32,000 nt of DNA from Nitratidesulfovibrio vulgaris str. Hildenborough (GCF_000195755.1 NC_002937.3:1350001-1382000), one strand, 5' to 3'. Positions 23 to 19,491 are shown, counted from the stretch's first letter. The notes: generated from the letters alone by a model not told the origin. Translations and numbers: made by a program.

Positions 23-1132
23 TCAGTAGTCGTCGTCATCCTGTAGGCTCAATGGACGTTGCTGGGTTGCCGTCTCACGCTGAGCAAAAGCGGCGAACCG
101 CTGCTTGTCCATGGCATGGGTCGCGGCATCGCGCGCGCTGATGACCCCCTGTGACAGAAGGCGCATGATGTCGTCGTCGAGGGTCTGCATCCCTTGTGCC
201 TTGCTCGTCTGGAGGAAACTCGGAATCTGGAAGGTCTTGCTCTCGCGGATAAGGTTGCGCACGGCGGGAACACCCAGCATGATTTCCAGTGCCGCCACAC
301 GTCCCGGTTTGTCGGTGCGTCGCAAGAGCACCTGTGAGATGACCGCCTGAAGCGTCTCGGAGAGGCTTGTCCGTATCTGCGCCTGCGTGTCGGAGGGAAA
401 GACCTCCACGATGCGGTCGATGGTCTTCGCGGCCGAGATGGTGTGCACGGTCGAGAGCACGAGATGCCCGGTCTCTGCGGCTTCAAGCGCGAGCGTGATG
501 GTTTCGAGGTCGCGCATTTCGCCAACGAGGATGATGTCGGGGTCTTCGCGTAACGCACCGCGGAGGGCGGCAGCGAAGCTGCGCGTGTCGCGCCCCACTT
601 CTCGCTGGTTGATGAGGCAGCCGCGTGGCGTGTGCACGAATTCGATAGGGTCTTCGATAGTGATGATATGGTCGCGGCGGTGGCTGTTGGCGTAGTCGAT
701 CATCGCCGCAAGCGTCGTCGACTTGCCGCTGCCGGTCGGCCCCGTGAGCAGGACAAGCCCCTTGGGGAGCATGGCGAGTTCCTGAAGCAGCGGTGGCAGC
801 CCAAGTTCATCGACTGAGAGGATGTGCTGCGGAATTTCGCGAAAGGCCGCGCCAACGCCGCGTTCCTGCCGGAAGAGGTTGGCGCGGTAGCGGGCGATGC
901 CGGGGACGGCATGGCTGAAGTCCACATCGCCGCATTCTTCGAAGAGTGCCAGTTTCGCGGGCGGTGTGATTTCGTGCAGCAGGGCGCGCATCATGTCGTC
1001 TGTGAGGGGCGGGTGGTCGAGCCTTTCAAGCCTGCCATGTACCCGCAACATGGGAACGCACCCCACCGAGAGGTGCAGGTCGGACCCGTGACGCTGATGC
1101 AGTATTTCGAAGAACCTGTCGATGGCGGGCAT
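23..1132 (-). CDS. pilT: Type IV pilus retraction ATPase, PilT family
   Basis: ORF 23..1258 trimmed to the ATG at 1132 (MPAIDRFFEIL...), with AAGGA about 8 nt upstream. Readable motifs: Walker A GPTGSGKST, Asp box IITIEDPIEF, Walker B DIILVGEMRD, His box GHLVLSTVHT, PilT signature AVRNLIRESK. Confidence 0.9.
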   Translation of the reverse strand: MPAIDRFFEILHQRHGSDLHLSVGCVPMLRVHGRLERLDHPPLTDDMMRALLHEITPPAKLALFEECGDVDFSHAVPGIARYRANLFRQERGVGAAFREIPQHILSVDELGLPPLLQELAMLPKGLVLLTGPTGSGKSTTLAAMIDYANSHRRDHIITIEDPIEFVHTPRGCLINQREVGRDTRSFAAALRGALREDPDIILVGEMRDLETITLALEAAETGHLVLSTVHTISAAKTIDRIVEVFPSDTQAQIRTSLSETLQAVISQVLLRRTDKPGRVAALEIMLGVPAVRNLIRESKTFQIPSFLQTSKAQGMQTLDDDIMRLLSQGVISARDAATHAMDKQRFAAFAQRETATQQRPLSLQDDDDY

Positions 1133-1307
1133 AGGATGTCCTTGTGGTTGTCGAAGCTGGCCATGCGCCGTATGGTTCGGGGCCGACGCACGAGAGCCTT
1201 CCGCGGCTGATGGTATGCGAGCGGCAGAAATTAGCAACCCCCATATAATAATAGTCAAAGGTGTCGTGCCACGTTACAGGCGACGCATCCGCGAACGAGG
1301 TTCCCCC

Positions 1308-2111
1308 ATGCACCAGCTACCCCCTGAACTATTGCCGTGGTTCGCTCTTGTGTTCGGTCTCGTGTTCGGCAGCTTCTATAATGTCTGCATCCATCGGTAT
1401 ATCGCGGGCGAATCCATAGTATGGCCTCCTTCACGGTGTCCCAAGTGCGAGACGCGTCTTGGCATACCAGACCTCGTGCCTGTATTCAGTTATCTTTTCC
1501 TGCGCGGAAAGTGCCGTCATTGCGGCAGTCACATCAGTGTGCGCTACCCCGTTGTCGAACTTGCATCGGGTCTGCTGGCCTTTCTTCTGATGCACCGCTA
1601 CGGTCTCACATGGCCTTTTGCCGTGTACTATGTCTTTGGCAGTGCACTGCTGGTGGCTTCGTTCATCGACTTCGAACTCTTCATCCTGCCCGACCCCATC
1701 ACGCTGGGCGGTGCCGTTCTCGCCCCGCCCGCCGCCATCCTGCTACTCGACCTGCCGTGGCAGGCGAGCCTTGCCGGGGCTGTCGTAGGCGGCGGCGGCT
1801 TCTGGCTGGTGGCTTGGCTGTTCCGCAAACTGCGCGGTGTCGAAGGCATGGGCCTCGGGGACGTGAAGCTCATGCTGCTCATCGGCGGGCTGTGCGGCGC
1901 GTCGGCGTTACCTCTCGTTACCATCATCGCGGGCTGTGCCGCGCTGGGGGCGAGTCTGTGGTTTCTCGCCCGACGCGAGAAGGGAACGGACGCGCGAGAG
2001 GTGCAGATTCCGTTCGGGCCCTTCCTCAGTCTTGGTGCGGTGATGCACATGCTCTATGGCCCGGACATCATCCACTGGTGGATAGCCCTTGTCACCGGAC
2101 GGCCCTTCTAG
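1308..2111 (+). CDS. pilD: Prepilin peptidase / N-methyltransferase (A24 family, PilD/GspO)
   Basis: ORF 1122..2111 trimmed to the ATG at 1308 (MHQLPPELLPWFALVFG...). Cys pairs CPKC...CRHC match the methyltransferase region. Catalytic-Asp contexts FIDFELFILPD and GMGLGDVKLM are present. Polytopic membrane profile. Divergent from pilT. Confidence 0.9.
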   Translation: MHQLPPELLPWFALVFGLVFGSFYNVCIHRYIAGESIVWPPSRCPKCETRLGIPDLVPVFSYLFLRGKCRHCGSHISVRYPVVELASGLLAFLLMHRYGLTWPFAVYYVFGSALLVASFIDFELFILPDPITLGGAVLAPPAAILLLDLPWQASLAGAVVGGGGFWLVAWLFRKLRGVEGMGLGDVKLMLLIGGLCGASALPLVTIIAGCAALGASLWFLARREKGTDAREVQIPFGPFLSLGAVMHMLYGPDIIHWWIALVTGRPF

Positions 2112-2418
2112 CGCCTTCTGATGGGTGGATGGATTTCCCCTTGTGCAGGGCACACTGGCGTGTCGTCGCAACCGTCCGTCAGGTGACCGGGGATGTCGGG
2201 TGCCGCGAACATACCCTGCGACCACGCCCGGTGGCTTTCCGATGCCCTTCCCCTGCGGTAGCCTGCCGGATGGGGGCTGCACTACGGCGGTCTGGCTGCG
2301 TGGCGTGGGGAGCTTGCTGTGACGAGGGTGATGACACTGGTGTGTGTCCACTGATGCGGCTCACCTGCCAGCGCCAGCCTGTGCATTCTCTCACGCTATT
2401 GTCGATGCCGCGTGGCCT

Positions 2419-3180
2419 TCAGCGGCGACTCAGGCGTTCGTAGGTCGCCATGACCTTGGTGACATAGTTCTGTGTCTCCGGAATGGCGGGAATGCCTCCG
2501 CAACGTGCCACTCTTTCGGGTCCGGCGTTATAGGCGGCGAGAGCGAGGCGCGTATCGCCAAAGCGCTGCATGAGCGACTTCAGATAGCGCACGCCACCCT
2601 CGACGTTGGCGTCGGGGTCGAAGGGTGCCTCCACCCCAAGGTCCTTCTGCGTACCGGGCATGATTTGCATGAGTCCCTGCGCCCCGGCGGATGACACGGC
2701 GGTGGGGTCGTAGTTCGATTCCACGGCGATGACCGCCTCGACGAGGTTGGGGTCGAGTCCATGGCGTTTGCCGTACTTGTCGGCAAGGCTGTGAATGCCC
2801 CGGGTGCCCACGGTGCGCACGAGGTCGTGGACGCGAAAACGCCCGAACACGCGATACCGTCCGTCGCCGCATGGCCTGTTGGTGAGGTGGACGACACCAT
2901 GTTCGTCGACGTATTTATAGATGGTGACGCGCTCTTCACCCGCGAAGGCGATGCCCGCCCGTCCGGAGTCTCCCCTCCGTCCTGTCTCTTCCGGTAGGAT
3001 GGGCAGTGTGCTTGCAAGCAGGATGAAAGCGGCAGTCAGCGCGGGCAGGGGCTGCCGGCCGGTAGCGCTGCGCTGCCTGAAGCGGCGTAAAAGGCTTCGC
3101 AGCCGGAGGGTTACGGCGTAGTATAAGACGGTGCAGCAACGTGGCACGTGGAGATGTTCGTTGGTCGTGAAAGGCAGCAT
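2419..3180 (-). CDS. Lytic transglycosylase (SLT domain) with N-terminal DUF4124-like module
   Basis: SLT catalytic region AVIAVESNYDPTAVSSAGAQGLMQIMPGT and AYNAGP motif. DUF4124-like IYKYVDEHGVVHLTNRP follows a signal/anchor helix. Start is uncertain: ATG 3180, GTG 3147 or TTG 3204. Confidence 0.8.
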   Translation of the reverse strand: MLPFTTNEHLHVPRCCTVLYYAVTLRLRSLLRRFRQRSATGRQPLPALTAAFILLASTLPILPEETGRRGDSGRAGIAFAGEERVTIYKYVDEHGVVHLTNRPCGDGRYRVFGRFRVHDLVRTVGTRGIHSLADKYGKRHGLDPNLVEAVIAVESNYDPTAVSSAGAQGLMQIMPGTQKDLGVEAPFDPDANVEGGVRYLKSLMQRFGDTRLALAAYNAGPERVARCGGIPAIPETQNYVTKVMATYERLSRR

Positions 3181-3940
3181 GGAGGTTCCCGTGAGTCGTC
3201 GCAATTATGTTTCCCTGACCGGAGTGGCGGTCCTTGCCCTCGCGGGGCTGGTCATCTTCGCGCGTCCGGCCGTTTCGGGCAAGGTCTACATGTGGACGGA
3301 CGAGGCGGGAGTGCGTCACATCACCGACACGCCTCCGCCTGAACAGAAGAGTGGCGTGAAGGAACTCACCGCCAATCCTGCGCCTGCCCGCGAGGCTGCC
3401 CCGGCACCTGCTGCGTCAGCCGCCCCGGGAGGGGCATCGGGAAGCGTCTGGGGCGGTGGTCCGGGGGCCGCTGGCATTCTGCCCGGTCTGCTTTCGGGCC
3501 AGAATCCGGGCGGGGGGGCTGGCAATGCCCCTTCAGGCAGTGCCGGTGGGGCAGGCGATGCCGCCAAGGGGCTTGTGCCTGCCTCGGTTGCCGACGACCT
3601 TGTGCGGAGTGCCTTGCAATCGGCACAGGAGCAAGCCAGAGATGGCAATCTGCCCGGCATGGCTGCGCCGGGTGACGTCATGCCCGGTAGTCCGGTTGCG
3701 GGCACCGAAGCCCCCGCGCGTGCCCCTTCCGCAGCCGACGAAGCGCGTCTCAATGAACTGCGTACCCGCCTCGATGCGCTTGAGAAGGAAAAGGCCGCCT
3801 ACGACCTGCAAGAACGCCGGGCGCGCAGCAAAGGCGACGGCTACGCCAAACAGCGGGCACGCTACCGCCAAAGCGACGTGGAAAAGCGCATCGATGAAGT
3901 GCAGGAGCAGATGCGGTCGCTCACCCCTGCCAGCGAGTGA
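3179..3940 (+). CDS. DUF4124-like secreted/anchored protein with Ala/Gly/Pro-rich linker and C-terminal coiled coil
   Basis: Signal-like SRRNYVSLTGVAVLALAGLVIFARPAVSG, then KVYMWTDEAGVRHITDTPPP (DUF4124-like). A low-complexity A/G/P tract follows, then a charged heptad-like tail (LNELRTRLDALEKEKAAYDLQERR...). Alternative start GTG 3191 sits 4 nt after GGAGG. Confidence 0.65.
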   Translation: MEVPVSRRNYVSLTGVAVLALAGLVIFARPAVSGKVYMWTDEAGVRHITDTPPPEQKSGVKELTANPAPAREAAPAPAASAAPGGASGSVWGGGPGAAGILPGLLSGQNPGGGAGNAPSGSAGGAGDAAKGLVPASVADDLVRSALQSAQEQARDGNLPGMAAPGDVMPGSPVAGTEAPARAPSAADEARLNELRTRLDALEKEKAAYDLQERRARSKGDGYAKQRARYRQSDVEKRIDEVQEQMRSLTPASE

Positions 3941-4390: not shown

Positions 4391-7300
4391 TCACTGCTGT
4401 ATGGGGGGCAGAAATCCCTTGCCGCCACGCAGGTCGAGTTGCAGCCCGAAGTCGTCGAAATAGAAGTTGGTTCCCGTCGGTCCGCTGGTGACGATGGAGA
4501 TACCTTCTGACGGGCTGTAGACTGGGTTGTCAGGGTCATAGGTCGGTGAAAGCAGGTTGGTACTCCGGACAATCGTTCGTGTGCGTTGCGAACCGTTGAT
4601 GTACTCGTTAAGGGCTGAAACGCCCGCCACCCCGGAACCCACCAGCGTCGCGTTCCCGGAGTTCGTCCCACCTGACGTGTTCACGACATCCCATTCTACC
4701 AGAGAGAAATAGTCGGTGGCAGCTTTCCACTGCTCGTAGTCGTCGGGTATCCAGCGCAGTTTGTCATTGTCGCCAAGGCGCGGGTTAGAGCGCCTGTCGG
4801 CGGACGAGAAGCCTCCGTTGCCGCCGGGGGCTTCTGGAGTGCAGGGGTTCGCGTCTCCCGTGCCGTTGCGTTCGGCGTCTGAGTAGTAGACGCGAATGAA
4901 GTTGGTCTTCGCCCCCAGTCCGCCGGTGCCTATGGTCGCGTGACTCACGTTGTTGACTTTCAGGGTCTGGCCGTTGCTGAAGTTCCCCGTCGCCCCTGTA
5001 TCCACGTTGGTCAGCACTAGCCGCCCTGAAGCCGTGCCGGATGTCCAGTCGCCGCTTTCGACGATGGGCTGACCGATGACCCGTGCCTTGGCGCCTGTCT
5101 GGGTGATGATTTCGTCGCCGTAGTTGATACGCAGTATACCGCCTGCCCCGTCAGACCCGCCGCCGTTGGTGAACTGCAATTCCTGTCCTTCGACAAGGCG
5201 CACCAGCAGGGTCGGCCACGCGTCGAGTCTGTATGTGGGGCCATTCTTACTGTAGGTGACAATACCCGATGAACTTCCAAGCTTCTTGTAGGCAAGCCAG
5301 CGAAATTGGCCATTCCTGCGTTCCCAGAGCATGATGGCAGGCCACGAATAGCGGCTCTCTTCATAGAAAATCCACCATCCCTCATCGACAATCTGGTTCA
5401 GGTCTTCATTATCGCCGAAAAGGGGGCCGCCCACATCGGGGTTGGGCGTGGCGTTGTAGCCCGGTACGAGTGAACTGGGAACGTCGTTGGGCCAGTACCA
5501 TCTGTCATTGAGCCATGTACGCCTCTGTCGAAAACGGACGAACGATATCCCGTAGCCGTCAAGGTCGTCTGAACCGCTGTTACGTCCTCTGAAGAGGAGG
5601 CCACCGAAGAAAGCCTTGCCCGAATCCTGATTGACATTGACCTTGAACTGGAGGTCGTAACTTGAGTTGCCGTAAGTGTCGGCCCATCCCCGTGCGAGGT
5701 TGACGTTCGTCCTGCCCCAGTTGAAGAACAGCGAACTCCATTGGTTATCACCCGAAAGCCATGACAGAAAACCGCCAAAGCCGGAGGTGGCAGCCGTCTG
5801 CATCCCGGTAACGCGTAGCGCCCCCCCGGACAGGGCGTGCGTCCCCAGATGGCCTTGACTGGAATCGCCCGTGAACCAGTTGGCGAGGCTTGCGAAATTG
5901 TCCTGATACTGTTCCTTACTGAAACTGCCCCCCCCAAGAATCCAGCCGATGGGCACGTTGTAGATGACCTCGCGCGCCATGCCCCCTGCGGGGATGCCCG
6001 TGGAGTGCAACCGCAGGTACGATTCAAGGGTCACGTCAGAGGCGGAAGACAGCGAGATGTCGGACCACGTCACGCCCTGACCTTCGACGAGGCGCACGTC
6101 TTCAAGGGTGTTTCCGTTCTTGCGCCGGTAGACGTAGGCGATGCGTCCATTGTTGGCGACGGGCCCGCCGCGGACGGTGAACATGCCGTTCACGTTGGGA
6201 AAGGCTGCGGCATGTGCCGAGTTGAGCGTCAGGTCTCCGTTATTGCCCACGGATGTGCTTGTGGGCGTGGCACTCAGGAAGATGTCCGCACCCGTATCGA
6301 TAGGGGGGGAAGGCGTCTGCGTCAGGGTGAAGGTGACCGTGTTGCCCGATGCCTGAATGTTGCTGTAGGTGTAGAAGACTGCGGCGTTGCCGATGCGTAG
6401 CCGCCCCGTGGTGTTGGTGGGCAGTGTGGGGGCGGTGCCGTAGACGCGCGTGACCAGCCGCGTTCCGGTGTTGCTGGTCGCCTCGAACCAGTAGGGCTCT
6501 ATCCCAAGCCGGAATGCCCCTGCATTGTTGGCGAAGGTATAGGTCGAACCGTCCATGGTCTGGAGAAGGTTCTTGCGGGCCTGTTCGTCTCCGGCGGCAA
6601 GGAACATGCTGCCCGCCGCCCCGAAGCCCGACTCCGCGAGATAATAGGCCTGGTCGCCCTGCACGGCGAAATAGCTGTTCTGCGTCGAAGCCGTCATCAT
6701 GGGCACCATGGCTGCGCCGATGACCGAAAAGGCCACGATGGTGACGATGACGCTGATGAGCACAGCACCGCGCGTACGCCCGCCGTTGCGACCATGGTCA
6801 GCGGCGGGCGGGTCGTGGCGCGCAATACAGGTGCCGTCAGACTTGCCGGTGTCGTTGCCGGAGAGATGCCTTGCGGTGGTGGGGCTGTTGTTGTCGGCGG
6901 CAGCCGTCTGTAACGGCGTGGTCTCTCTGTGCAGGGTGCCGCCGTGCAGTGCCGCCCCCAGCATGTGCCCAAGCACGAGAGACAGCATGAACAGGGTACC
7001 AAGGGCTATCGGGGCGTGCACGGCCATGCCGCACAGCGCGGCAAGGGGCGTCAGTATGCCCATGACGGCGGCCCGTACCGTATCATGCCCTTGCAGCATG
7101 TCGGCGAGTCGCGGCCCCACGGTGTAATAGGCGCGTACCAGCATGCGCCCCCCGCCCCATGTGAGCAGAAGCCTGTCACGGAATTCTCGTAGCTGCACCA
7201 CCACCGGGTGGCTTGTGTCACCGCTGGCAGCGGTAGCCACGAAGCAGATGTCGAAGCGTTCCAGAGAAGGCGGCACGGCTTCTGGCAGTGCGCCGCCGCG

Positions 7301-7828
7301 ATTCTCGTTGTTGCGCGGTACGATGCGGTTGCTGAAGGTGCGTGTGGTGCCGCCGGGCGCGGTGAGGGTGAAGGTCACGTCCACGCCGGAGAGGAGTCGC
7401 GGGTCTGTACCAGCCGACCATGTGGCCGTGGAGACATCTTCCTGCCAATAGTTGAGGCTGAAGGCCGTGACGTTGTCGATGAGCGTGTCACCATTCTGTG
7501 CGCCCTGTGCGCCGTTGGCGATGCGAATCTCGCGGGCGTTGGCAACATATTCTATCGACCTGTCGAATTGCCCCGCGCCGCCCGCCCCCACGTTACGCAC
7601 CACAAGACGGGTGGCGCTGCTGTCTGCGGGGACGGCGACCAATTCAATCACTTCGCGGGTGATGCGGTCGAGCGCAAGTTGTGCCTCCATGGCCATCGCA
7701 CCGGCTTCGCGTGCCTGCACGAAGCCGCGCACGCCGCTGACGATGCCCACACCTGCCACGGCAGCGATGACTCCGACGATGAGCAGTACCGCCACGGTCT
7801 CTATGAGTGTGAAGCCCTTGGCCTTCAT
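4391..7828 (-). CDS. Giant (1145 aa) prepilin-type protein: PilW/GspJ-like minor pilin + CFI-box-like hydrophobic module + PilX/GspK-like helix + large beta-rich C-terminal domain
   Basis: Uninterrupted ORF. N-terminus MKAKG|FTLIETVAVLLIVGVIAAV has a class III signal with Glu+5. AGGAGA RBS overlaps the upstream stop. See findings for domain boundaries. Confidence 0.85.
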   Translation of the reverse strand: MKAKGFTLIETVAVLLIVGVIAAVAGVGIVSGVRGFVQAREAGAMAMEAQLALDRITREVIELVAVPADSSATRLVVRNVGAGGAGQFDRSIEYVANAREIRIANGAQGAQNGDTLIDNVTAFSLNYWQEDVSTATWSAGTDPRLLSGVDVTFTLTAPGGTTRTFSNRIVPRNNENRGGALPEAVPPSLERFDICFVATAASGDTSHPVVVQLREFRDRLLLTWGGGRMLVRAYYTVGPRLADMLQGHDTVRAAVMGILTPLAALCGMAVHAPIALGTLFMLSLVLGHMLGAALHGGTLHRETTPLQTAAADNNSPTTARHLSGNDTGKSDGTCIARHDPPAADHGRNGGRTRGAVLISVIVTIVAFSVIGAAMVPMMTASTQNSYFAVQGDQAYYLAESGFGAAGSMFLAAGDEQARKNLLQTMDGSTYTFANNAGAFRLGIEPYWFEATSNTGTRLVTRVYGTAPTLPTNTTGRLRIGNAAVFYTYSNIQASGNTVTFTLTQTPSPPIDTGADIFLSATPTSTSVGNNGDLTLNSAHAAAFPNVNGMFTVRGGPVANNGRIAYVYRRKNGNTLEDVRLVEGQGVTWSDISLSSASDVTLESYLRLHSTGIPAGGMAREVIYNVPIGWILGGGSFSKEQYQDNFASLANWFTGDSSQGHLGTHALSGGALRVTGMQTAATSGFGGFLSWLSGDNQWSSLFFNWGRTNVNLARGWADTYGNSSYDLQFKVNVNQDSGKAFFGGLLFRGRNSGSDDLDGYGISFVRFRQRRTWLNDRWYWPNDVPSSLVPGYNATPNPDVGGPLFGDNEDLNQIVDEGWWIFYEESRYSWPAIMLWERRNGQFRWLAYKKLGSSSGIVTYSKNGPTYRLDAWPTLLVRLVEGQELQFTNGGGSDGAGGILRINYGDEIITQTGAKARVIGQPIVESGDWTSGTASGRLVLTNVDTGATGNFSNGQTLKVNNVSHATIGTGGLGAKTNFIRVYYSDAERNGTGDANPCTPEAPGGNGGFSSADRRSNPRLGDNDKLRWIPDDYEQWKAATDYFSLVEWDVVNTSGGTNSGNATLVGSGVAGVSALNEYINGSQRTRTIVRSTNLLSPTYDPDNPVYSPSEGISIVTSGPTGTNFYFDDFGLQLDLRGGKGFLPPIQQ

Positions 7829-7838: not shown

Positions 7839-8522
7839 CTAGCGCGAGAACAATGTGGTGGCCTGCTGGCCGTTCACTTCGATGGTCACGCGCAGCATGT
7901 CGCCGTTGGCGTCGGCTTGTTCGGCAAAGGCGTTGGTGCCTGTGTTCACGAAACGGATGCGCCGATTCACCACCACGGTATAGGTTCCATAGGTGGTACT
8001 CACCGTGCTGCCCGCAGCACCGATACGCCCGCTGATGATGCCGATGGGGTTCTCTTCGGTGGCCCACAGGTTGCGGTAGTCCGCGGTCATGGACTCGATG
8101 GCATCGGTGAGGCGCGACTGTGCGTCAGAACGCACAAGGCTTTCGGCGCTGCCGCGCAGTGCGGTACCTGTCATGGTGAGCAGCATGGTGGACATGATGG
8201 CGGCAAGGATGATGGTGACGATGATTTCAATGAGTGTGAAGCCGCCCTGGGCATGACGGGAAGACGCGGACGTGAAGGCGGCAGGGCGAGTGGATTGGGC
8301 GATGCTGTCTGCAGGCGGTGGTGCCGGTGCTGCATGGTTGAAGGCAGAACATACGGCAGAGGTTGCGGAATGGGCGGTAGGGGCAGCAGGCTGGCACAAC
8401 GTCTGGCACTCCGCGTGGCCTGCCATATGGCGTGTCGCGCAATGCGAAGAATACCCCGGAGTATGGCGTGCCCCATGGCGCGAGACTGGGTATGGTAAAT
8501 GGCGGCAGGGCTGACGTTTCAT
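7839..8522 (-). CDS. Minor pilin (prepilin-type N-terminal cleavage/methylation domain; PilV/GspI-J-like) with unusually long leader
   Basis: GG|FTLIEIIVTIILAAIMSTML at aa 134-136 of ORF 7839..8645. The ATG at 8522 forms an ATGA overlap with the upstream stop. Nearer in-frame starts are only ATG 8426 and TTG 8399, so the leader is at least 52 aa. Confidence 0.7.
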   Translation of the reverse strand: MKRQPCRHLPYPVSRHGARHTPGYSSHCATRHMAGHAECQTLCQPAAPTAHSATSAVCSAFNHAAPAPPPADSIAQSTRPAAFTSASSRHAQGGFTLIEIIVTIILAAIMSTMLLTMTGTALRGSAESLVRSDAQSRLTDAIESMTADYRNLWATEENPIGIISGRIGAAGSTVSTTYGTYTVVVNRRIRFVNTGTNAFAEQADANGDMLRVTIEVNGQQATTLFSR

Positions 8523-9088
8523 CGCATGAACCCCGTATTGCGGACGATGACGATGTTCTCCGTGGCACCCTGAAAACCCACCGTCACGGTGACATTGGCT
8601 GTACGCAGGGTGGTTCCTGACGCATCGGAACACGGACGTCCCCATTCGTCAAAGGAGATGGTGGTGGCGGCGGTGGTGAAGGTGGCACCCTGTGGCAGTG
8701 TGATGGTGCCGCCCGCTTCACCGGGCATGGTCACGCGGGTGTTGACGTTGCCACCGCGAAAGACCGCATAGGTCGTGCCGGAGATGATGCGTACCCCGAA
8801 CACTTCGTCACTGTTCATGGAACGGGTGCGCGCATAGCGGATGTTGTTGCGAACACTGGCGGCGATGGCACCCACCTCGCCCGCGCGCTGGTCGAACATG
8901 CGTTCGGCGGCGACAGCCGTTATCACAGCCATGATGACAAGTACGGCGATGATCTCGACGAGCGTAAAGCCTCGCTGACGCGAGGCATGATCGGCCCTCG
9001 AGGGGCGGCGTGTGCTGCTGGCGATGGCGGAAGGGGGCGAAGCCCTTCCGGGAGCGCACGGCGTGTTTTCGGGGCGTATGCTGTTCAT
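8519..9088 (-). CDS. Minor pilin, FimT/FimU/GspH-like, with long leader
   Basis: QRG|FTLVEIIAVLVIMAVITAVAAERMF. I found no in-frame ATG/GTG/TTG between the ATG at 9088 and the cleavage motif, so the leader is at least 40 aa. GTG 9133 is an alternative start. Confidence 0.7.
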   Translation of the reverse strand: MNSIRPENTPCAPGRASPPSAIASSTRRPSRADHASRQRGFTLVEIIAVLVIMAVITAVAAERMFDQRAGEVGAIAASVRNNIRYARTRSMNSDEVFGVRIISGTTYAVFRGGNVNTRVTMPGEAGGTITLPQGATFTTAATTISFDEWGRPCSDASGTTLRTANVTVTVGFQGATENIVIVRNTGFMR

Positions 9089-9232
9089 GCTGCGACCTGT
9101 ATGGGGCGGTGCCCATCTGCGAGGCGTGCGCACGGGGCTTGTGTGATGCCGGGACGTATGACGCCTTCGTGGTGCGGGACGTACTGACGTGCCATGTTCA
9201 AGCCTGCGCCGCCGTGGGCGTGGGGGCGCCTC

Positions 9233-10513
9233 TTATTTCTGGTTGAATTGCCGCACGACATCCTCAAGCGGCATGTCGTCGGTGACGGTGACGTACCCGT
9301 CGTACTCGTCAGAGGCAAGGGGCGGCAGGGCATGGGCAGGCATGACGTCGTCCATGCCGTTCATGCCGCTGTCATTCATGAACCGCACAGGGCGGGCGTG
9401 GCGTGCCTGTTCAGCCGCATAGTGGGTCAGACCCAGACCGTGGTCGACGAGGGGGCTCTCATAGTCTTCGCCGCCCGCCTCTTCAGGCGCGGGGCGAAAC
9501 ACGTTGGAAGGTGCCGAAAGCCGTTGCTGCCGCTCGAGGAATTCTGTTCGGTAGGCGTCGGCGGTGAACATGCCGTCACCCCTGCCCATCTCCATGAGGC
9601 TGGTGAGTTGGGCGAACTTGCCTTCGCGCACGAGCATCCGCACCGGGTTGTTACCCACAAGGATGGAAAGCACGGGCACACGGAAGCGCGCCGTGGGGTG
9701 CATCTGCAACTGCTGTACGACGATGGCGTTGAGCGAAGACGAAAGCTGATGCCGCACAAGGTCTTGTGCCTCGAGGGGGAAGGCGTTGCACAGCCGGTAG
9801 AGGGCTTCTTCGGGCGATGACGAGTGCAGCGAGGCGATGATGAGGTGTCCCGATTCGGCGGCACTGAGGGCAAGGCGGATGGTCTCTGCCTCGCGCAACT
9901 CGCCCACCAGCACCACGTCGGGGTCTTCGCGCAGCACGTCAAGCAGCCCGCGTTCGAACGAGGGAAAATGTCTGCCCAATTCACGCTGTTCGACGAACGA
10001 CTTCTTGGAGGCGAAGCGGTATTCGATGGGGTCTTCCAGCGTGATGATGTGGGCGGGGCGGGTACGGTTTATCTCGTCCAGCATGGCAGCCATGGTGGTT
10101 GTCTTGCCGCTGCCGGTGGCACCGCAGACCAGAATAAGCCCCGACCGCAACCGGGTGAATTCTTCGAGAGAGGGGTGCAGGTTGAGGTGGGCAAGGCTGG
10201 GGATGTGCCCCGCCAGAAGGCGCACCGCAAGGCTGAGACCCCGCGTGGTGTTGAAGATGTTCAGGCGCACCCGTATGCCCGCCACCGAGTGGGCGAAGTC
10301 GACCGACCAGCGGCGGCGCAGGATGTCGCGGCGGTAGGGTGTGAGCAGAAGCCGGGCGAGGTCGTCAAGTTGCGCGGTTGTGAAGGTGACATCGGGCAAC
10401 ATGCCGATGTCGCCGTCTTTGCGGTACACCACCGGGTGGTTGCCTGTCATGTGCAGGTCGGACCAGCCATAGGCGACAGCCTGCTGGATGATGGTGGAGA
10501 ATCGCTGAAGCAT
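9233..10513 (-). CDS. Divergent PilT/PilU-like hexameric ATPase with ~90-aa acidic C-terminal tail
   Basis: Walker A GATGSGKTTT, Asp box IITLEDPIEY, Walker B DVVLVGELRE, His box GHLIIASLHSSS, variant signature PVRMLVREGK. GAGGTG RBS precedes the ATG at 10513. Confidence 0.85.
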   Translation of the reverse strand: MLQRFSTIIQQAVAYGWSDLHMTGNHPVVYRKDGDIGMLPDVTFTTAQLDDLARLLLTPYRRDILRRRWSVDFAHSVAGIRVRLNIFNTTRGLSLAVRLLAGHIPSLAHLNLHPSLEEFTRLRSGLILVCGATGSGKTTTMAAMLDEINRTRPAHIITLEDPIEYRFASKKSFVEQRELGRHFPSFERGLLDVLREDPDVVLVGELREAETIRLALSAAESGHLIIASLHSSSPEEALYRLCNAFPLEAQDLVRHQLSSSLNAIVVQQLQMHPTARFRVPVLSILVGNNPVRMLVREGKFAQLTSLMEMGRGDGMFTADAYRTEFLERQQRLSAPSNVFRPAPEEAGGEDYESPLVDHGLGLTHYAAEQARHARPVRFMNDSGMNGMDDVMPAHALPPLASDEYDGYVTVTDDMPLEDVVRQFNQK

Positions 10514-10580: not shown

Positions 10581-11006
10581 CTACGGGCAAGACGGAAGGG
10601 TTACTTGTGCTGTCAGAGGGGTTGCACTGACATCAGCGTTCGTAAAGGCCACGTCGATTGTGTCACCCGCGTCCGTCGCAAAGTTGAAGGCTGTTGGGTT
10701 GGTCGTCCAGCCACTGAGGGTGCCTGCAGCTCCTTCCCAGAGTGCGGCTTCACGAGTGTCCATGCCTGCAAGAGCGGTAGCGCAGACACCGTTTGCAGTA
10801 ATAAGTTCACGAGCAAAAAGCTGGTTGATTCGGGCTTGGAGTTCCGCTGCTGTCGCATCAGCTGCACGCTGCGCAGCGTTAGTTTGAAGCTGGAAATACC
10901 TAGGTACTGCCACTGCAGCCAGAATGCCAAGAATAACGAGCACGGCGATGATTTCGATGAGGGTGAAACCCTTCTGCCCCTTCCGCTGTTCATGCAATCT
11001 CTTCAT
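10581..11006 (-). CDS. pilA: Major type IV pilin (141 aa precursor)
   Basis: ORF trimmed to the ATG at 11006 with an AGGAGA RBS. MKRLHEQRKGQKG|FTLIEIIAVLVILGILAAVAVPRYF has a 13-aa leader and Glu+5. Two Cys (GVCATA...LPSCP) could form the C-terminal disulfide loop. It sits directly after pilB-pilC. Confidence 0.85.
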   Translation of the reverse strand: MKRLHEQRKGQKGFTLIEIIAVLVILGILAAVAVPRYFQLQTNAAQRAADATAAELQARINQLFARELITANGVCATALAGMDTREAALWEGAAGTLSGWTTNPTAFNFATDAGDTIDVAFTNADVSATPLTAQVTLPSCP

Positions 11007-11118: not shown

Positions 11119-12345
11119 CTAGCGCTTGCCAGCCATCTGCGTGAGGTCCCACATGGGCATGAAGATGGCGAGGGCGAAGAAGCCCACCACCGCCGCGAGG
11201 GCGACGATGAGCACAGGACCGATGGCTTCCGCCATGCCCGCCACGGCGTATTCCACTTCTTCGTCGTAGTGTCGTGCCACGTCATTGAGCATGGCGTCGA
11301 GACTGCCCGATTCCTCCCCGATGGCGACCATGTTCACCACCAGAGGGGTGAAGAAGCGGGCGGTGCGCAAAGGTTCGGCAATGCCCCTGCCTTCACGCAA
11401 CTGGTCTTGAATGCGGGTGAATTCGCGGGCGATGGCTGCGTTGCCGATGGTGTTGTTCAGTACGTCCAGCGCATCCAGCACTGAAACGCCGCTGGATTGC
11501 AAGATGGCGAAGATGGAGGCGAAACGCGCCATGACCGACTTCTGGATGACGGGACCCACCCCCGGCAGTCGCAGCACGAGTCTGTCGCGCCAGTACCTGC
11601 CGTCTTCGGTGCGTACCCAGTACTTGTAGGCGACGGTGCCCGCCACCACCACCGCCAGCACCACATACCAGTAGGTAGAAAAAACATAATGCATACCGAT
11701 GGCTATCTTGGTGGGCCACGGAAGGGTGATTCTGGCTTGCGAGAAGATGAGCACGAATTTGGGAATGACGAGGTTGAGCAATACGAAGAATGCCACTGCC
11801 AGCGCACCCATGACCATCTTGGGGTAACGCAGGGCGGACTTGATGTCTGAACGTATCTTGTGCTCATGTTCCAGCAGGTAGACGAGGCGGTCCATCACCT
11901 CGCCCAGTGCGCCAGAGGCTTCGCCCGCCCGCATCATGGAACAATAGAGTTCACTGAACACCTTGGGGTGGGCGCGGAATGCGTCGTACAGTGTGGCGCC
12001 ACCCATGATGGCTTGCGACATCTCGGCGGCGATGGCTTTCAACCGCTTGTGTTCGGTCTGATTCTGCAACACCTGCAACAACTGGGTGATGGGAATGCCC
12101 GCCTGAAAGAGCGTGCGAAACTGCTTGGTGAAGAGAATGAGTTCCTTGGGGGGAATGGGTGAAAGCGCATCCGCCAGTGCACCCAGCCCCAGCGAAAAGC
12201 CGCCGCCCGCGCCCGCCTTCACCTCCAGCGGTACATAGCCCCGGCTGAACAGGATGGCACGCGCCGCTTCGGTGCTTTCGGCGTCGATGACGCCTTCCAT
12301 CTTCACCCCGTTCTCGTTGCGGGCGGTATAGCTGAAGCTTGCCAT
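11119..12345 (-). CDS. pilC: Type IV pilus platform protein PilC (GspF family)
   Basis: 408 aa with two repeated GspF-type halves, each a cytoplasmic domain plus TM segments. The start lies 3 nt after the pilB stop. Confidence 0.9.
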   Translation of the reverse strand: MASFSYTARNENGVKMEGVIDAESTEAARAILFSRGYVPLEVKAGAGGGFSLGLGALADALSPIPPKELILFTKQFRTLFQAGIPITQLLQVLQNQTEHKRLKAIAAEMSQAIMGGATLYDAFRAHPKVFSELYCSMMRAGEASGALGEVMDRLVYLLEHEHKIRSDIKSALRYPKMVMGALAVAFFVLLNLVIPKFVLIFSQARITLPWPTKIAIGMHYVFSTYWYVVLAVVVAGTVAYKYWVRTEDGRYWRDRLVLRLPGVGPVIQKSVMARFASIFAILQSSGVSVLDALDVLNNTIGNAAIAREFTRIQDQLREGRGIAEPLRTARFFTPLVVNMVAIGEESGSLDAMLNDVARHYDEEVEYAVAGMAEAIGPVLIVALAAVVGFFALAIFMPMWDLTQMAGKR

Positions 12346-12348: not shown

Positions 12349-14070
12349 CTACCCCTGCAACATGACGGCGGTCGCCGCCTCTTCGACGGTGGTGATGCCA
12401 GCCCGTACCTTGAGGGCGGCGTCCTGCACGAGGGTACGCATCAGCCCCGCTTCGATGGCGGTGTTGGCGATGACCTGCGTGGACGAACGGCGTACCACAA
12501 GTTCCTGTATCTCTGGCACCATGGGCAGAATCTCGAACAGCCCCGTACGCCCGCGGTAGCCCGTGTGGGCGCAATGGAAGCAGCCGCGCCCCTTGAGGAA
12601 GCGCGACCTGCCGTCGTGCCCCTCTGCGGGGTCGATGCCGAAGGCAGCCAGCGCGGCATGGGGCGGGTCATAGGGTTCGGCGCAGTTGGGGCACACGCGG
12701 CGCACCAGACGTTGCGCGAACGAGGCGAGCATGACCGATGAGACGAGAAACGGTTCGATACCCATGTCGATGAGGCGTGTGACCGCACCCGCCGCGTCGT
12801 TGGTGTGCAGGGTGGAGAGCACAAGGTGACCGGTGAGGGCCGCCTGTACCGCGATAGAGGCGGTTTCGGCGTCACGTATCTCACCCACCATCACCACGTC
12901 GGGGTCCTGACGCAGGATGGAACGCAGACCGCTGGCGAAGGTCATGCCCGCCTTGCGGTTGAGTTGCACCTGACGGATGCCGCCGATGCGGTATTCCACC
13001 GGGTCTTCAAGGGTGATGATGTTGATTTCCGGCGTGTTGATGCTCTTGAGGATGGCGTACAGGCTGGTGGATTTGCCGCTGCCCGTGGGGCCGGTGGAGA
13101 GTATCATGCCGTAGGGCTTGTGGATGACCCGCTTGATGACGGTGTGGTCGGTCTGTTCCATGCCCAGCTGGTCGAGGGTGTAGTCGCGTCCGCTCATGTC
13201 GAGAAGACGCAAGACCATGTTCTCACCGTAGATGGTGGGAATGCTGGACACGCGCACGTTGATTTCGCGGTTGTCGAGATTCATGGTGAAGCGACCGTCT
13301 TGCGGCACGCGGGTGACGGCGATGTCCATGTTGCCCAGAATCTTCAGGCGCGAGACCATGGCGGGGGCCACGTTCTTGGGCGGGGCGGGGGCTTCGCGCA
13401 GCTTGCCGTCGATGCGGAAGCGCACCTGTCTGGAGTCTTTCTCGGGGCTGATGTGCACGTCGCTGGCGCCCTCGCGCACCGCCTGTGCCAGAATGGAGTT
13501 GACCAGCCGCACCACGGGGGCGAGGTCTGCCTGACTGGCGAGTTCTTCGAGGGCCACGTCGCGGTCTTCGGTCTCGGTCTTGGCTGCGGTGGCGGTGTGC
13601 AGGTCGCCGAGGCTCTCTATCACACCGTCGAGATTGGTGAACATGCCGTAGACGGCGCTGAACAGCTGGTTGAATTCCTGCTCTGTGCAGATGACAGGCT
13701 CGACTTCGCTGTTGGTGGCGAATTCGATGGTGTCGCAGGCGTCGATGTCCAGCGGGTCGGTCATCGCCACCACAAGCACATGCCCGTGCTGTTGCAGCGG
13801 TACGGCGTTGCACTTCTGCGCCGTCTCAAGCGGCAGGCGTTCCGCCATGTTGAGACTCAGCGGAAAGTCCTGCGGGGAGTAGCGGTCGATACGCAGCTGG
13901 CGACTCACGGTGGCGACGACGTCGCCCTCGCGGCACACGCCCGTCTTGATGAGGAACTGGCCAAGCCTGAGCCCGCTCTTCTTGTGGTCGCGCAGGGCCA
14001 CCTTGAGCTGCTCGTCGCTTATGATGCCGGCTTCTACCAGCAGTTCTCCCAACCTCACTCGCTTACGCAC
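12349..14070 (-). CDS. pilB: Type IV pilus assembly ATPase PilB (GspE family)
   Basis: N-terminal T2SSE_N/MshEN-like RLGELLVEAGIISDEQLKVAL. Walker A GPTGSGKST, Asp box IITLEDPVEY, Walker B DVVMVGEIRD, His box GHLVLSTLHTN, tetracysteine CPNC...CFHC. GTG start at 14070; 14058 and 14052 are also possible. Confidence 0.92.
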   Translation of the reverse strand: MRKRVRLGELLVEAGIISDEQLKVALRDHKKSGLRLGQFLIKTGVCREGDVVATVSRQLRIDRYSPQDFPLSLNMAERLPLETAQKCNAVPLQQHGHVLVVAMTDPLDIDACDTIEFATNSEVEPVICTEQEFNQLFSAVYGMFTNLDGVIESLGDLHTATAAKTETEDRDVALEELASQADLAPVVRLVNSILAQAVREGASDVHISPEKDSRQVRFRIDGKLREAPAPPKNVAPAMVSRLKILGNMDIAVTRVPQDGRFTMNLDNREINVRVSSIPTIYGENMVLRLLDMSGRDYTLDQLGMEQTDHTVIKRVIHKPYGMILSTGPTGSGKSTSLYAILKSINTPEINIITLEDPVEYRIGGIRQVQLNRKAGMTFASGLRSILRQDPDVVMVGEIRDAETASIAVQAALTGHLVLSTLHTNDAAGAVTRLIDMGIEPFLVSSVMLASFAQRLVRRVCPNCAEPYDPPHAALAAFGIDPAEGHDGRSRFLKGRGCFHCAHTGYRGRTGLFEILPMVPEIQELVVRRSSTQVIANTAIEAGLMRTLVQDAALKVRAGITTVEEAATAVMLQG

Positions 14071-14358: not shown

Positions 14359-15933
14359 CTAGTTGACGCTGGTTTCCTCGCGGTAGGGCAGGATGGCGGG
14401 CGTGATGAATATCAGCACGTCCTCAAGCTTGTTCGCCTTCGAGTCGTTGCCGAACAGCGCGCCGATGCCCTCTACATCCTGCAGGTAGGGCAGGCCCTGT
14501 CTGCGGGTGCTGCTGCGTTCCTTGGTGAGGCCGGAGATGACCACCGTCTCGCCGTCCTGCACGATGAGCGTCGTCTCGGTCTGCTTCTTGATGATGAAGG
14601 GGTTGCCCTCAACCGTGCGGGTAAGGTCGACCTCGTCCTTCTTGACCTGCACCTTGAGCTTGAGGTTGGACTCGTCGATGACGTGCGGGGTGATTTCAAG
14701 GCGCAGCACCGCGTCTTCGAACTTCACTTCGCGGTCGCCCTGTGCGTTGGTGGATACGTAAGGTACCTTCTCGCCGTTCTCGGTGAACGCCATCTGGTTG
14801 TCCAGCGTGGAGATGGAGGGCGACGAGAGGATGTTGAGCTTGCCATTGTCCTGCAGGGCCGAAAGCTGCACTTCGAGCATGTTGCCGCCGATGGTGCCGA
14901 ACATGAGGCCCAGCGAACCCATGGCCGTCTTGCCCGCCTTGTTCACCGGGAAGTTCATGCCGAAGCCCTGCCCGCTGAGGCCGCCCGGCGGGATGACAGG
15001 TACGCCGCCTCCTGCCTGCGGGTCTGTGGGCTTGGTGGGCCCCGAACCGCCGGGGGTTACCCACATGCGGTTGCCGTCGCCCATGTTGCCGGAACGACCC
15101 ACGCCACCCCACTGGATGCCAAGGTCGCGCGCGGTGTCGCGCGTGGCTTCGACGATGTGCGCCTTGAGCAGTATCTGTGCGCGGGGCTTGTCGAGGTTGT
15201 TGACGAGCGTGATGATCTTGGAAAGGTCGTCCTCAACGGCCTGTACGATGAGCGAGTTGGTATGCGTGTCCACGACCACGGCGCCCACGGGCTTGTTCTG
15301 TTCGTCCTTGCTGAGGAAGCCTTCAAGGTTCTTCTTGAGTTCAGCAGCTTCGGCGTAACGCACCTCGATGACCGAGGTCACCAGCGGCCCCACCTTGCGG
15401 CCCTTGAGTTGCTGCGCCATGCGTTGCGTCTCGAGCAGTTCGCGTTCGACCTCTGCCTTCTTGTCGGCGAGGGTCATCACCTGAATGAGCTCGCCACGCC
15501 ATGCGAAATCGAGCGCGTTGCTGGCGAGAATGCCCTTGAACACGTCTTCCCACGGCACCCTGTTCACGTTGATGCTGGCCGTGCCCTTGACGCCGGGGCT
15601 GACGATGATGCTGGTGTTGGCGGCGGCGGCAAGACTGCGAAGGGCCACGCCCACGTCGACATTGTGCAGTTTGAGGGTGACGGGCATCTGCGGCAGCGGG
15701 CGCTTCTGCTCTTCTTGCTTGGCGGTGACCTCTTCCTGACGCAGCAGCGTCTTGGGCTTGACGTCGCGCACCACCTTGGGCGGCGAGAAGCCCGTGGAAT
15801 TGCTGGCGAGGCTCTGCCACTTGCTGAAGAATGGGTCGGTCTCGTCCTTCTTCTTGCTGGCGCAACCTGCGACGAGCGCGACGGCGAGTAGAGCCGTGAA
15901 CGTGGTCATCAGTATCGTGTTCGTGAAGCGCAT
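14359..15933 (-). CDS. pilQ: Secretin PilQ/GspD family, predicted lipoprotein (liposecretin)
   Basis: ORF 14359..16392 trimmed to the ATG at 15933: MRFTNTILMTTFTALLAVALVAGC with lipobox VAGC. An N0/STN-like domain and N1 domain are present. C-terminal secretin core: GLPYLQDVEGIGALFG...VLIFITPAIL. Confidence 0.88.
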   Translation of the reverse strand: MRFTNTILMTTFTALLAVALVAGCASKKKDETDPFFSKWQSLASNSTGFSPPKVVRDVKPKTLLRQEEVTAKQEEQKRPLPQMPVTLKLHNVDVGVALRSLAAAANTSIIVSPGVKGTASINVNRVPWEDVFKGILASNALDFAWRGELIQVMTLADKKAEVERELLETQRMAQQLKGRKVGPLVTSVIEVRYAEAAELKKNLEGFLSKDEQNKPVGAVVVDTHTNSLIVQAVEDDLSKIITLVNNLDKPRAQILLKAHIVEATRDTARDLGIQWGGVGRSGNMGDGNRMWVTPGGSGPTKPTDPQAGGGVPVIPPGGLSGQGFGMNFPVNKAGKTAMGSLGLMFGTIGGNMLEVQLSALQDNGKLNILSSPSISTLDNQMAFTENGEKVPYVSTNAQGDREVKFEDAVLRLEITPHVIDESNLKLKVQVKKDEVDLTRTVEGNPFIIKKQTETTLIVQDGETVVISGLTKERSSTRRQGLPYLQDVEGIGALFGNDSKANKLEDVLIFITPAILPYREETSVN

Positions 15934-15952
15934 TGATATTTCCCCGCTGCTG

Positions 15953-16447
15953 CTACAGGTCGTCGCCGGTATACGGCAGTTCGCGTTCGGTTCCGTCTTC
16001 GGCGGCTGCCAGCACGACCTTGCCGGGCGTGATGGACTTGACCACATAGCCGCTGTCGGCCACGGCCTCTCCGGTGCGGTATTCAAGCCCGTCGACAATG
16101 GCGAAGACCATGTTCCCCACGGCAAGGTAGCCCGTGTAGGCCATGGTCTGCGCCGAGTCGGTTCCGCCCGGCCCCGCCATGCTTCCACTGCGTACGGTGG
16201 GTGCCGGCGGCAGCCTGAAGGGGTTGCCGCTGGCCTGGCGCACCGCTGCGTCGAGCACATACAGCTGGCTGGGCGAGACAGGCACTTCGGCAAGCGCCTT
16301 CTGGACGTTCTGAACCACGGTAGATGCCGGGGTGGTCTGCACCGCCTTGGGCGTGACACCTCCACCGCCGGGCATGGCGAACGAGAGCGCACCCACGACG
16401 GCGACCGCTCCCATCACGCCCAAAAGTATCTGTTCCCTGCGGGTCAT
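15953..16447 (-). CDS. PilP/GspC(HR-domain)-like inner-membrane alignment protein
   Basis: ORF trimmed to the ATG at 16447 (MTRREQILLGVMGAVAVVGAL, one TM). C-terminal beta-rich YTGYLAVGNMVFAIVDGLEYRTGEAVADSGYVVKSITPGKVVL. Position is between the pilO-like gene and pilQ. Confidence 0.55.
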   Translation of the reverse strand: MTRREQILLGVMGAVAVVGALSFAMPGGGGVTPKAVQTTPASTVVQNVQKALAEVPVSPSQLYVLDAAVRQASGNPFRLPPAPTVRSGSMAGPGGTDSAQTMAYTGYLAVGNMVFAIVDGLEYRTGEAVADSGYVVKSITPGKVVLAAAEDGTERELPYTGDDL

Positions 16448-18928: not shown

Positions 18929-19470
18929 TTCTGCGGTTCAAGCAGACGGATTACGTCGCGTTGGCGGAACCTGATGCATGGGCAAGGTGGATGCCGCCGC
19001 CGTGCATGGCGTTGGCAAAGACACTCCACAGCACAAGAGGTCCGTAATCTGTAGCTTGGTTGCGTGTGAGGTCTTACATAAAACCCTTGCGCAAAGTCCC
19101 CCCCTGCGCTTTTGTCGGGCTTCTATGGCCTGCGGTTGAGCTATATGCCGTAGTTTTATGAGAATGCAAGAGTATTATAACTTTTTATGATGGCTGCTAT
19201 TTCTGCAGGTTCATGCATGAAAATGAAGCGACACTTCATTTGTATACTGTGAAACTGTTGATTTGGCGAAGACGTGGCTGGGGCCATGTGACCACAACGA
19301 CTCTGCCACGTCGCTGTGGGATTGCGGCTAGTGGTGGGGCTGCCGTTTGAACGAGTCAAGATGTGAAGAGATGTGAAAGTCGTTAAAAAACGTTGTGTTA
19401 TTGCGGTGAAGGCCCTTTCGCCGGGGGCATTCACATCACACACCGTGACTGATGGCTGAATGCGGATATG

Positions 19471-19491
19471 AAAAAAGCCCGTTGCCGGGCT
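19471..19491 (-). terminator. Rho-independent terminator of selC
   Basis: On the minus strand: agcccg-gcaa-cgggct hairpin followed by TTTTTT, beginning 12 nt after the tRNA CCA end. Confidence 0.7.

Follow-up and report, generated by a model that had tools for sequence, protein, structure and literature searches.

A Nitratidesulfovibrio vulgaris gene that joins GspJ/PilW-like and GspK/PilX-like minor pilins through an internal CFI-box-CTERM domain

The closest described counterparts of the gene analyzed here are the minor pilins FimU-PilV-PilW-PilX of Pseudomonas aeruginosa and GspH-I-J-K of type II secretion. In other type IV filaments, assembly of the tip complex is licensed by a strand that the final 6-10 residues of PilY1/PilC contribute to the K-like pilin, and GspK and the CpaL protein of Tad pili provide their own C-terminal strand in place of PilY1/PilC (PMC12918778). 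Streptococcus sanguinis PilB, with a vWA module, and PilC, with a lectin module, are modular type IV pilins (PMC8179133, PMC9934059). We analyzed a stretch of 32,000 nucleotides from Nitratidesulfovibrio vulgaris str. Hildenborough (NC_002937.3:1350001-1382000, hereafter the window), in which the last gene of a minus-strand, type IVa-like pilus cluster is a single giant open reading frame (ORF) of 1145 amino acids. Its cluster has the same pilin order as the P. aeruginosa and type II secretion sets, placed after the pilus ATPases, but what are elsewhere GspJ/PilW and GspK/PilX are here one polypeptide with a CFI-box anchor between them.

What becomes of J and K, which close an H-I-J-K set, when a complete J-like prepilin, a CFI-box-CTERM domain and a K-like prepilin make up one reading frame? 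On balance we think it probable that the ORF encodes a natural J-CFI-K polyprotein of these two tip or priming pilins, in a type IVa-like system, and that the polyprotein is cut back into two parts. The J module has the EpsJ fold of the GspJ/PilW pilins, and the K-like half begins as GspK and PilX do, with a basic leader that ends in glycine, a helix without a glutamate at position 5 and the sequence A(Y/F)(Y/F)LAE(S/A)G, which is the end of the PilX_N profile. Unlike in those families, the K part exceeds PilX four- to fivefold in size, no GspK-like fold match was detected in it, and neither T2SSJ nor PilX_N reaches its Pfam threshold. With CpaL and GspK the protein shares an N-terminal pilin-like helix, a large middle, a conserved extreme C-terminus and a cluster without a PilY1 gene, although no sequence or fold relationship to those two was detected and neither is fused to a J-like pilin. 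It resembles S. sanguinis PilB and PilC in being a pilin with bulky grafted modules, likely at the tip, but those contain a single pilin module and lack internal membrane segments, whereas here two prepilin-type helices are parted by an anchor domain.

The 1145-residue ORF is a real and widely conserved gene. An earlier note on this DNA had placed it at 4391-7828, where it indeed runs from an ATG on the minus strand, and no 100-codon block falls outside the range 0.64-0.83 in GC content at third codon positions (GC3). Among 5.8 billion proteins searched, 107 proved related to the query; some 100 of these are full length (967-1456 amino acids) and collinear with it. Independent assemblies carry full-length counterparts of 99, 88, 87 and 79 % identity, the complete genomes of Nitratidesulfovibrio liaohensis and N. 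termitidis encode homologues of 62-63 % identity, and distant members of the family, down to ~25 % identity, are found in Smithella, Syntrophales, Syntrophobacterales and Desulfatibacillaceae. Three hydrophobic segments are common to the 107 matches, and CF(V/I)ATAA lies ~190-230 amino acids from the N-terminus. The names that NCBI gives to the homologues are only 'PulJ/GspJ family', 'PilW family', 'type II secretion system protein' and 'CFI-box-CTERM domain-containing protein'. Conservation and AlphaFold2 modeling were based on an alignment of 91 sequences, and the whole-protein model has a mean predicted local distance difference test (pLDDT) score of 81.5. The landmarks named in the earlier note are likewise in place: MKAKG/FTLIE (the slash marks the predicted signal cleavage position) at residues 1-10, ...TRTFSNRIVPRN ending at residue 173, a hydrophobic stretch at 253-294, RG/AVLISVIVTIV... 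from residue 353/354, QAYYLAESGF at 393-402 and some 740 residues after the PilX/GspK-like helix.

Residues 1-173 form a complete GspJ/PilW-like minor pilin, as had been proposed from the sequence. The isolated J module scores 24.3 bits against N_methyl (PF07963; cut-off 21.2, with 19.9 bits for the whole protein) and 20.5 bits against TIGR02532 (cut-off 16.3), which makes it a type IV pilin by profile; against T2SSJ (PF11612) it reaches only 19.5 bits (E 1.3e-3, gathering cut-off 28), with a match to the last 60 residues alone. AlphaFold2 gives the module a helix of 54 residues (8-61) followed by a β-sheet (63-169), at pLDDT ~90. When the whole model was compared with the Protein Data Bank (PDB) by Foldseek, EpsJ chains of 2ret were the best matches (probability 1.0, template modeling score 0.54-0.58, root-mean-square deviation 4.6-6.8), and the Thermus pilin TTHA1219 also came out at probability 1.0; that the whole protein served as query accounts for the modest E-values of these matches (~0.01-0.1). 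The stand-alone pilin of a Syntrophobacteraceae locus (L012) aligns end to end with residues 5-173 (E 1e-15), and the pilin genes of the split loci without a CFI box, described below, stop precisely at the homologous ...V(A/N)PRN. Across the family the linker at 174-194 opens with a conserved PRNNxNxGG and continues as variable Pro-rich sequence.

The identity of the segment that follows is the key to the architecture of the protein. The earlier note had seen a 'hydrophobic module' in the right place without recognizing it as a CFI-box-CTERM domain. Positions 1-68 of the 69 in the NCBIfam profile NF041770 align with residues 195-262, with a score of 72.1 bits for a cut-off of 40. The motif C195-F-V-A-T-A200 is conserved to at least 90 % in the family alignment, AlphaFold2 places helices at 208-221, 225-245 and 249-271 and a hydrophobic helix at 273-297, and in 90/90 fused homologues the stretch from the Cys to the invariant Gly of the K-like half includes a hydrophobic 17-mer (median Kyte-Doolittle score 2.53). 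Elsewhere CFI-box-CTERM is, true to its name, a C-terminal membrane-anchor domain. Queried with residues 185-300, phmmer picked out 11,143 of 1.84 billion cluster representatives (E up to 1e-3); 90 of the 136 newly returned proteins are non-pilins with the Cys-Phe-Ile motif 77-120 amino acids from the C-terminus, and each CFI-box protein inspected individually ends in a hydrophobic helix and an Arg/Lys cluster. With thousands of NF041770 proteins our ORF has in common the full-domain match, the motif, the helices, the hydrophobic helix and the basic tail, but here the domain is attached to a pilin and is internal, at residues 195-297 of 1145. The distance from Cys to Gly is 114-117 amino acids in most fused pilins and the motif of those 90 proteins lies 77-120 amino acids from the end, and therefore the K half starts where a CFI-box protein normally ends.

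A short-form subfamily of the CFI box also exists (P0052-P0072, P0073 and P0101-P0104; L003 7523-8900). Its membrane helix lies within ~10 residues of the motif, and the Cys-to-Gly distance is 57-86 amino acids instead of the usual 114-117. C-terminal sorting signals are classically laid out in this way, as a motif, then a membrane helix, then a basic tail. In some short-form members the motif is degenerate (CFISTAQ, CFVDTVA, CFIGTAN) with Cys-Phe retained; Cys-Phe-(Val/Ile) is the piece of the CFI box that is always kept. A literature search for the CFI-box domain and the CFIATAA motif found no paper on the domain.

After the CFI helix the family has a loop with a median length of 16 amino acids, a median of 4 Lys plus Arg and a median of 0.5 Asp plus Glu, and it is net positive in 87/90 members. 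In the Nitratidesulfovibrio lineage the stretch before the invariant Gly has grown to as many as 59 low-complexity residues, 56 in the window, and the loops of the window protein and of its closest relative, P0002, are no longer clearly net positive (Lys plus Arg 7, Asp plus Glu 6). Separate translation of the K half was considered and is ruled out, since there is no in-frame ATG, GTG or TTG between residues 298 and 354. The K-like helix reads RTRG/AVLISVIVTIV through to QAYYLAESGF and is modeled as one helix of 58 residues (354-411). Three of its residues, G354, A398 and G401, are invariant in the 91 sequences, and the residue before the invariant Gly is Arg or Lys in 76/91. At the +5 position the internal signal has Gly, Ser, Ala, Val or Thr, and in none of the 91 a Glu. 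GspK and PilX are not known to carry Glu5, and the window protein has the same combination of Gly at -1 with no Glu at +5. Both the invariant Gly and L-A-E-x-G recur when 25 internal segments are lined up with the N-termini of four stand-alone K proteins; the alignment runs residue for residue from G354 and bears out the PilX/GspK-like helix that the earlier note had put at residue ~354. PilX_N (PF14341) does not reach its gathering score on the query (14.2 bits, E 0.044, cut-off 25.5); 3/29 family N-termini match it at E up to 0.1, the best at E 3.2e-5, and the stand-alone K protein P0106 scores 19.5 bits.

The remainder of the K-like half is a large β-rich region. The AlphaFold2 model of residues 345-1145 (pLDDT 87.9, predicted template modeling score 0.75) is a helix followed almost entirely by β-structure. 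Foldseek found no PDB match to it at E up to 1e-3, and the matches listed are only small β-barrels and low-probability Ig, FnIII and MAM ectodomains; no Pfam family was found over residues 412-1145, and a PDB sequence search with the family profile returned nothing but pilin N-terminal helices. A relationship was detected to an unfused K-like protein, that of L012, which hhalign aligns with the family profile at a probability of 99.3 % and E 1.1e-20 (residues 604-879). At the extreme C-terminus conservation of D1125, D1126 and F1127 is 90 % or higher, up to invariance, and GF(L/V)xPIQ(Q/E/Y) ends most full-length members. Two homologues, P0058 and P0059, carry at residues ~760-896 an inserted β-sandwich of the MAM-like, Reelin subrepeat-B or 'choice-of-anchor J' type that the window protein lacks. 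The names MAM-like and 'choice-of-anchor J' were rejected for the C-terminal region of the query, as the matches are confined to this insert and do not align to it. The length range of the family (967-1456 amino acids) and such inserts suggest a swapping of binding modules.

Comparison of orthologous clusters, which the earlier note had proposed, turned up two genes, J and K, in place of the ORF in L007, L010, L012 and L022, and in each of these loci the stand-alone K homologue directly follows a J-like gene. In L012 the two are separate and without a CFI box; the pilin ends ...TFSTRVAPRN-stop, and a 527-codon K gene begins seven bases later with MNTPINHLRRLHRPLRSRG/SVLIAVIVTIV...KAFYLAESG. 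L010 (Desulfobacula) and L007 (Syntrophales) also have separate J and K genes with no CFI box, the K gene of L007 encoding ~790 amino acids. L010 contains two paralogous stand-alone K-like genes (2082-3428 and 5300-6673; 448 and 457 amino acids), before and after its H-I-J genes. The L022 locus is of a different kind: a J-CFI pilin of 313 amino acids ends ...GKSRHHFHLRKGV-TGA, and after a single GCC comes the in-frame ATG of MLKNQRG/AVLIAVIITMM...QAYYLAESGY, so that K starts 3 nt after the J-CFI stop in the same frame. Four further J-CFI proteins of this type were found. One base change in a stop codon of the L022 type would be predicted to create the fusion. L001 and L002 have an H-like gene, an I-like gene and then the fused giant, and in the window, L001, L002, L007, L010, L012 and L022 alike two small pilin genes precede, with J third in an H-I-J-K order. 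The scan for related loci covered at least 600 candidate stretches, and the ratio of fused to split loci in it is no census. The split J/K loci and the J-CFI/K locus in other genomes confirm a true fusion of the pilW and pilX positions. Without any third gene being present, the unfused K-like genes (457-790 amino acids) already include the terminal motif and the homologous β-rich region, and therefore the region belongs to the K-like protein and not to a third fused gene.

How could two N-in/C-out pilins be made as one chain? We propose that the N-terminus lies inside, that the J domain and the CFI helices are periplasmic, and that the hydrophobic CFI helix crosses back in; a short positive cytoplasmic loop would follow, the K helix would cross out, and the β-rich region would be periplasmic. 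This topology is based on the positive-inside rule and on the action of prepilin peptidases, which takes place at the cytoplasmic face of the membrane. The CFI anchor would thus supply the extra membrane crossing needed to join the two pilins, and its basic tail would merge with, or serve as, the second prepilin's leader. A prepilin peptidase gene lies 2.3 kb from the giant ORF, and its product is predicted to cut after G5 and after G354 and so to free a normal K-like tip pilin; the lack of a start codon of its own in the K half, the invariant Gly after Arg or Lys, the alignment of the site with stand-alone K leaders and the nearby peptidase gene support G354 as a cleavage site. The J-like pilin may be freed from its anchor at or near the conserved Cys-Phe-Val by a putative sorting enzyme, the least certain step, for which the short-form signals offer a suggestive hint. 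J and K would then join the H- and I-like pilins and prime the pilus, with the β-rich region of K at the tip, where it would replace the missing PilY1. The K protein probably caps the pilus, and its variable β-rich region would act as an adhesin. By analogy with PilY1/PilC, GspK and CpaL, the conserved terminal peptide may serve as a strand in tip-complex assembly (PMC12918778). Fusion would also provide 1:1 synthesis and side-by-side membrane insertion of J and K.

Several points weigh against this reading. The invariant Gly (91/91) stands in an otherwise variable, low-confidence linker, and its invariance could be structural, for example in a tight turn between two helices, and have nothing to do with cleavage. 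The PilX/GspK label of the K half rests mainly on gene order and the N-terminal helix, with PilX_N below its threshold, and neither GspK nor any pilin is among the Foldseek matches listed for the K-half model. The long-form CFI domain has ~55 residues between motif and membrane helix, unlike classical short sorting signals, and no CFI-box sorting enzyme was seen among the window genes scanned. More tentatively than the polyprotein itself, we suggest that two membrane sorting systems handle this polytopic chain, the peptidase cutting at the internal class III signal and a putative CFI-box enzyme cutting or modifying the J-like pilin at the conserved Cys. We know of no description of an internal class III signal after a transmembrane helix as a prepilin peptidase substrate.

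The best surviving alternative, though an unlikely one, is a single uncleaved chain, which would lose nothing but its N-terminal leader and enter the tip entire, with J still linked to K. The CFI and K helices would be pulled from the membrane as a hairpin and pack in the hydrophobic core at the top of the filament, where the helices of higher subunits are missing. Such a hairpin would suit the short loop between the two helices (median 16 residues) and the Cys-to-Gly distance fixed at 114-117 amino acids, and the fusion has been kept across several bacterial orders to ~25 % identity. However, the split systems work without such an extra helix, the low-confidence loop of 56 residues in the lineage of the window argues against a tight hairpin, and the invariant Gly after Arg or Lys is exactly as in stand-alone K prepilins. 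Pulling the charged loop through the membrane would, we infer, also be unfavorable. We regard as still more doubtful a platform retained in the inner membrane, with J-K tethered by the CFI anchor as a site of priming or nucleation or as a retraction stop. The three membrane segments would fit it, and the occurrence of J-CFI proteins with a C-terminal anchor as separate genes means that an anchored J-like pilin is a recurring design. Yet a β-rich region of ~730 amino acids that varies in length, in some members with MAM-like or 'choice-of-anchor J' inserts, is better suited to an exposed binding module, and the cluster has the secretin and the PilB/PilT motors of a surface pilus.

The earlier note had gone further and read the ORF as a triple fusion of pilW, pilX and pilY1, with the C-terminal ~700 residues derived from a PilY1 gene. 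The split loci uphold the fusion of the pilW and pilX positions; for the PilY1 part no homology was found, and a triple fusion is now very improbable and largely refuted. In its favor, the note was right that the cluster holds no separate PilY1-like gene, in that no scanned ORF of the window matches PilY1/PilC, and the large C-terminal region ends in a strongly conserved peptide that recalls the C-terminal assembly strand of PilY1/PilC (PMC12918778). Against it, the PilY1/PilC β-propeller family PF05567 has no match on the whole protein, nor on four isolated segments even at E up to 10, and with two models as Foldseek queries, the whole protein and the confidently predicted K half, neither PilY1/PilC nor any other β-propeller is among the listed matches. 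The β-rich region and terminal motif in unfused K-like genes of 457-790 amino acids speak against it as well, and the most that the C-terminal region could be is a stand-in for PilY1 in function. An artefact of sequencing or assembly, in which a missed stop or a frameshift joined ordinary genes, has a negligible chance and is refuted for the family: a single base error could mimic a fusion where, as in L022, only TGA-GCC parts two genes in the same frame, but ~100 independent full-length homologues down to ~25 % identity, from isolates, metagenomes and the complete N. liaohensis and N. termitidis genomes, exclude it, and the window linker consists of 56 open-frame codons with high GC3.

A comparable fusion occurs in an unrelated setting. 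P0107, a protein of 739 amino acids from a JGI metagenome, consists of an MXAN_2561-like part, a CFI box, the basic sequence RRWRRRGRR, LATAALVLGLVGAASGVARA/Q and an MXAN_2562-like outer-membrane barrel. As in the pilin ORF, a CFI-box anchor and its basic tail lead without a change of frame into the signal peptide of a protein that a neighboring gene usually encodes. Unlike in the pilin ORF, the downstream signal is of the Sec/signal peptidase I type (..VARA/Q) and not a prepilin signal, and P0107 is a single sequence. CFI-box anchors may repeatedly mediate the in-frame fusion of neighboring genes for secreted proteins.

The coordinates of the ORF, its parts and its neighbors are collected in Table 1. 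The gene order given in the earlier note, a PilT-like ATPase, a GspH/FimU-like pilin, a small pilin and the giant, was found as described. The best NCBIfam match of the GspH/FimU-like ORF is GspH (E 2.5e-8, under its cut-off); the ORF in the GspI/PilV position has an internal true start, with the prepilin motif QGG/FTLIE at ORF residue ~133. The two PilT-type ATPase genes, both on the minus strand, lie on either side of the minor-pilin block. The MshEN domain of PilB indicates that pilus assembly may be under cyclic di-GMP control, and the 639-residue PilM-like ORF upstream of the secretin, with its weak matches, may be a fused or divergent alignment protein of the PilM-N-O type. The sole low-GC kilobase of the window (GC 0.52, 19001-20000) contains a tRNA-SeC gene (anticodon TCA; 19503-19596, minus strand), with the pilus cluster on one side and ftsH on the other. 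Housekeeping genes make up the rest of the window.

Table 1. Positions in the window of the giant ORF, its modules and the surrounding genes (aa, amino acids or residue numbers)
Feature	Position	Strand	Evidence or remark
Whole ORF, 1145 aa plus stop	4391..7828	-	ATG start; homologues; uniform GC3
GspJ/PilW-like minor pilin, aa 1-173	7310..7828	-	N_methyl, TIGR02532, AlphaFold2, Foldseek
Class III signal MKAKG/FTLIE and α1 helix of J module	7745-7828	-	
Pro-rich linker NENRGGALPEAVPPSLERFDI, aa 174-194	7247..7309	-	pLDDT <50 at aa 180-200
CFI-box domain, CFVATAA motif and three helices, aa 195-271	7016..7246	-	NF041770; AlphaFold2
Transmembrane helix of CFI-box-CTERM, aa 273-297	6938..7012	-	Hydrophobic; AlphaFold2 helix; predicted periplasm-to-cytoplasm orientation
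Linker/loop, aa 298-353, ending in basic leader ...GRNGGRTR	6770..6937	-	pLDDT <50; predicted cytoplasmic
Internal class III-like signal and α1 helix, PilX/GspK-like, aa 354-411	6596..6769	-	Gly354 codon 6767-6769
β-rich extracytoplasmic region of K-like half, aa 412-1145	4394..6595	-	AlphaFold2; putative adhesin/tip module
β-sandwich region common to unfused K-like proteins, aa 604-879	5192..6019	-	hhalign
Conserved extreme C-terminus YFDDFGLQ...GKGFLPPIQQ, aa 1122-1145	4394..4465	-	Alignment; short AlphaFold2 strands at end
Second PilT-like ATPase	23-1258	-	Near window edge; adjoins prepilin peptidase
Prepilin peptidase, PilD-type, A24	1122..2111	+	A24_N_bact E 1.3e-33; Peptidase_A24 E 1.4e-15
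SLT lytic transglycosylase, candidate ORF	2419-3204	-	DUF4124 match; overlaps 3131-3940
269-aa protein, candidate ORF	3131-3940	+	DUF4124 match; overlaps opposite-strand 2419-3204
Small minor-pilin ORF, GspI/PilV position	7839-8645	-	N_methyl 26.1 bits; same order in related loci
GspH/FimU-like minor-pilin ORF	8519-9133	-	N_methyl 31.5 bits; prepilin motif QRG/FTLVE at ORF aa ~53
PilT-like ATPase	9233-10513	-	
Pilin	about 10581-11006	-	
PilC/GspF	11119-12345	-	
PilB with MshEN/cyclic di-GMP N-terminus	12349-14070	-	MshE-type cyclic-di-GMP-binding motif aa 6-58, NF053729 E 2e-16
PilQ secretin	14359-16392	-	
PilM-like	17009-18928	-	TIGR01175 E 1.4e-6; Amuc_1101 family PilM-like E 3e-6; no Pfam match

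A large tip pilin is not new in itself. A literature search on prepilin peptidase polyproteins, Desulfovibrio minor pilins and the CFI box found nothing on the present architecture, in which a single chain combines a pair of prepilin modules, an internal connector that is elsewhere a C-terminal anchor or sorting domain, and an internal class III signal after a membrane helix. A design rule can be read from it: two N-in/C-out proteins would be fusable when a C-terminal anchor brings the chain back across the membrane and the next leader is formed by the basic tail of that anchor, and the unrelated P0107 follows the same fusion logic with a Sec signal. CFI-box-CTERM, present in more than 11,000 protein clusters by phmmer and with no literature found on it, appears here within a well-understood machine in which its fate can be read, and if two sorting systems do act on the chain, this pilin family would be the first tractable substrate for CFI-box function. 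Tip complexes without PilY1 are under current discussion in pilus assembly (PMC12918778), and the fusion is a natural experiment on them and on the pairing of J with K. The organisms that carry it are sulfate reducers and syntrophs, in which pili matter for attachment and for contact between cells.

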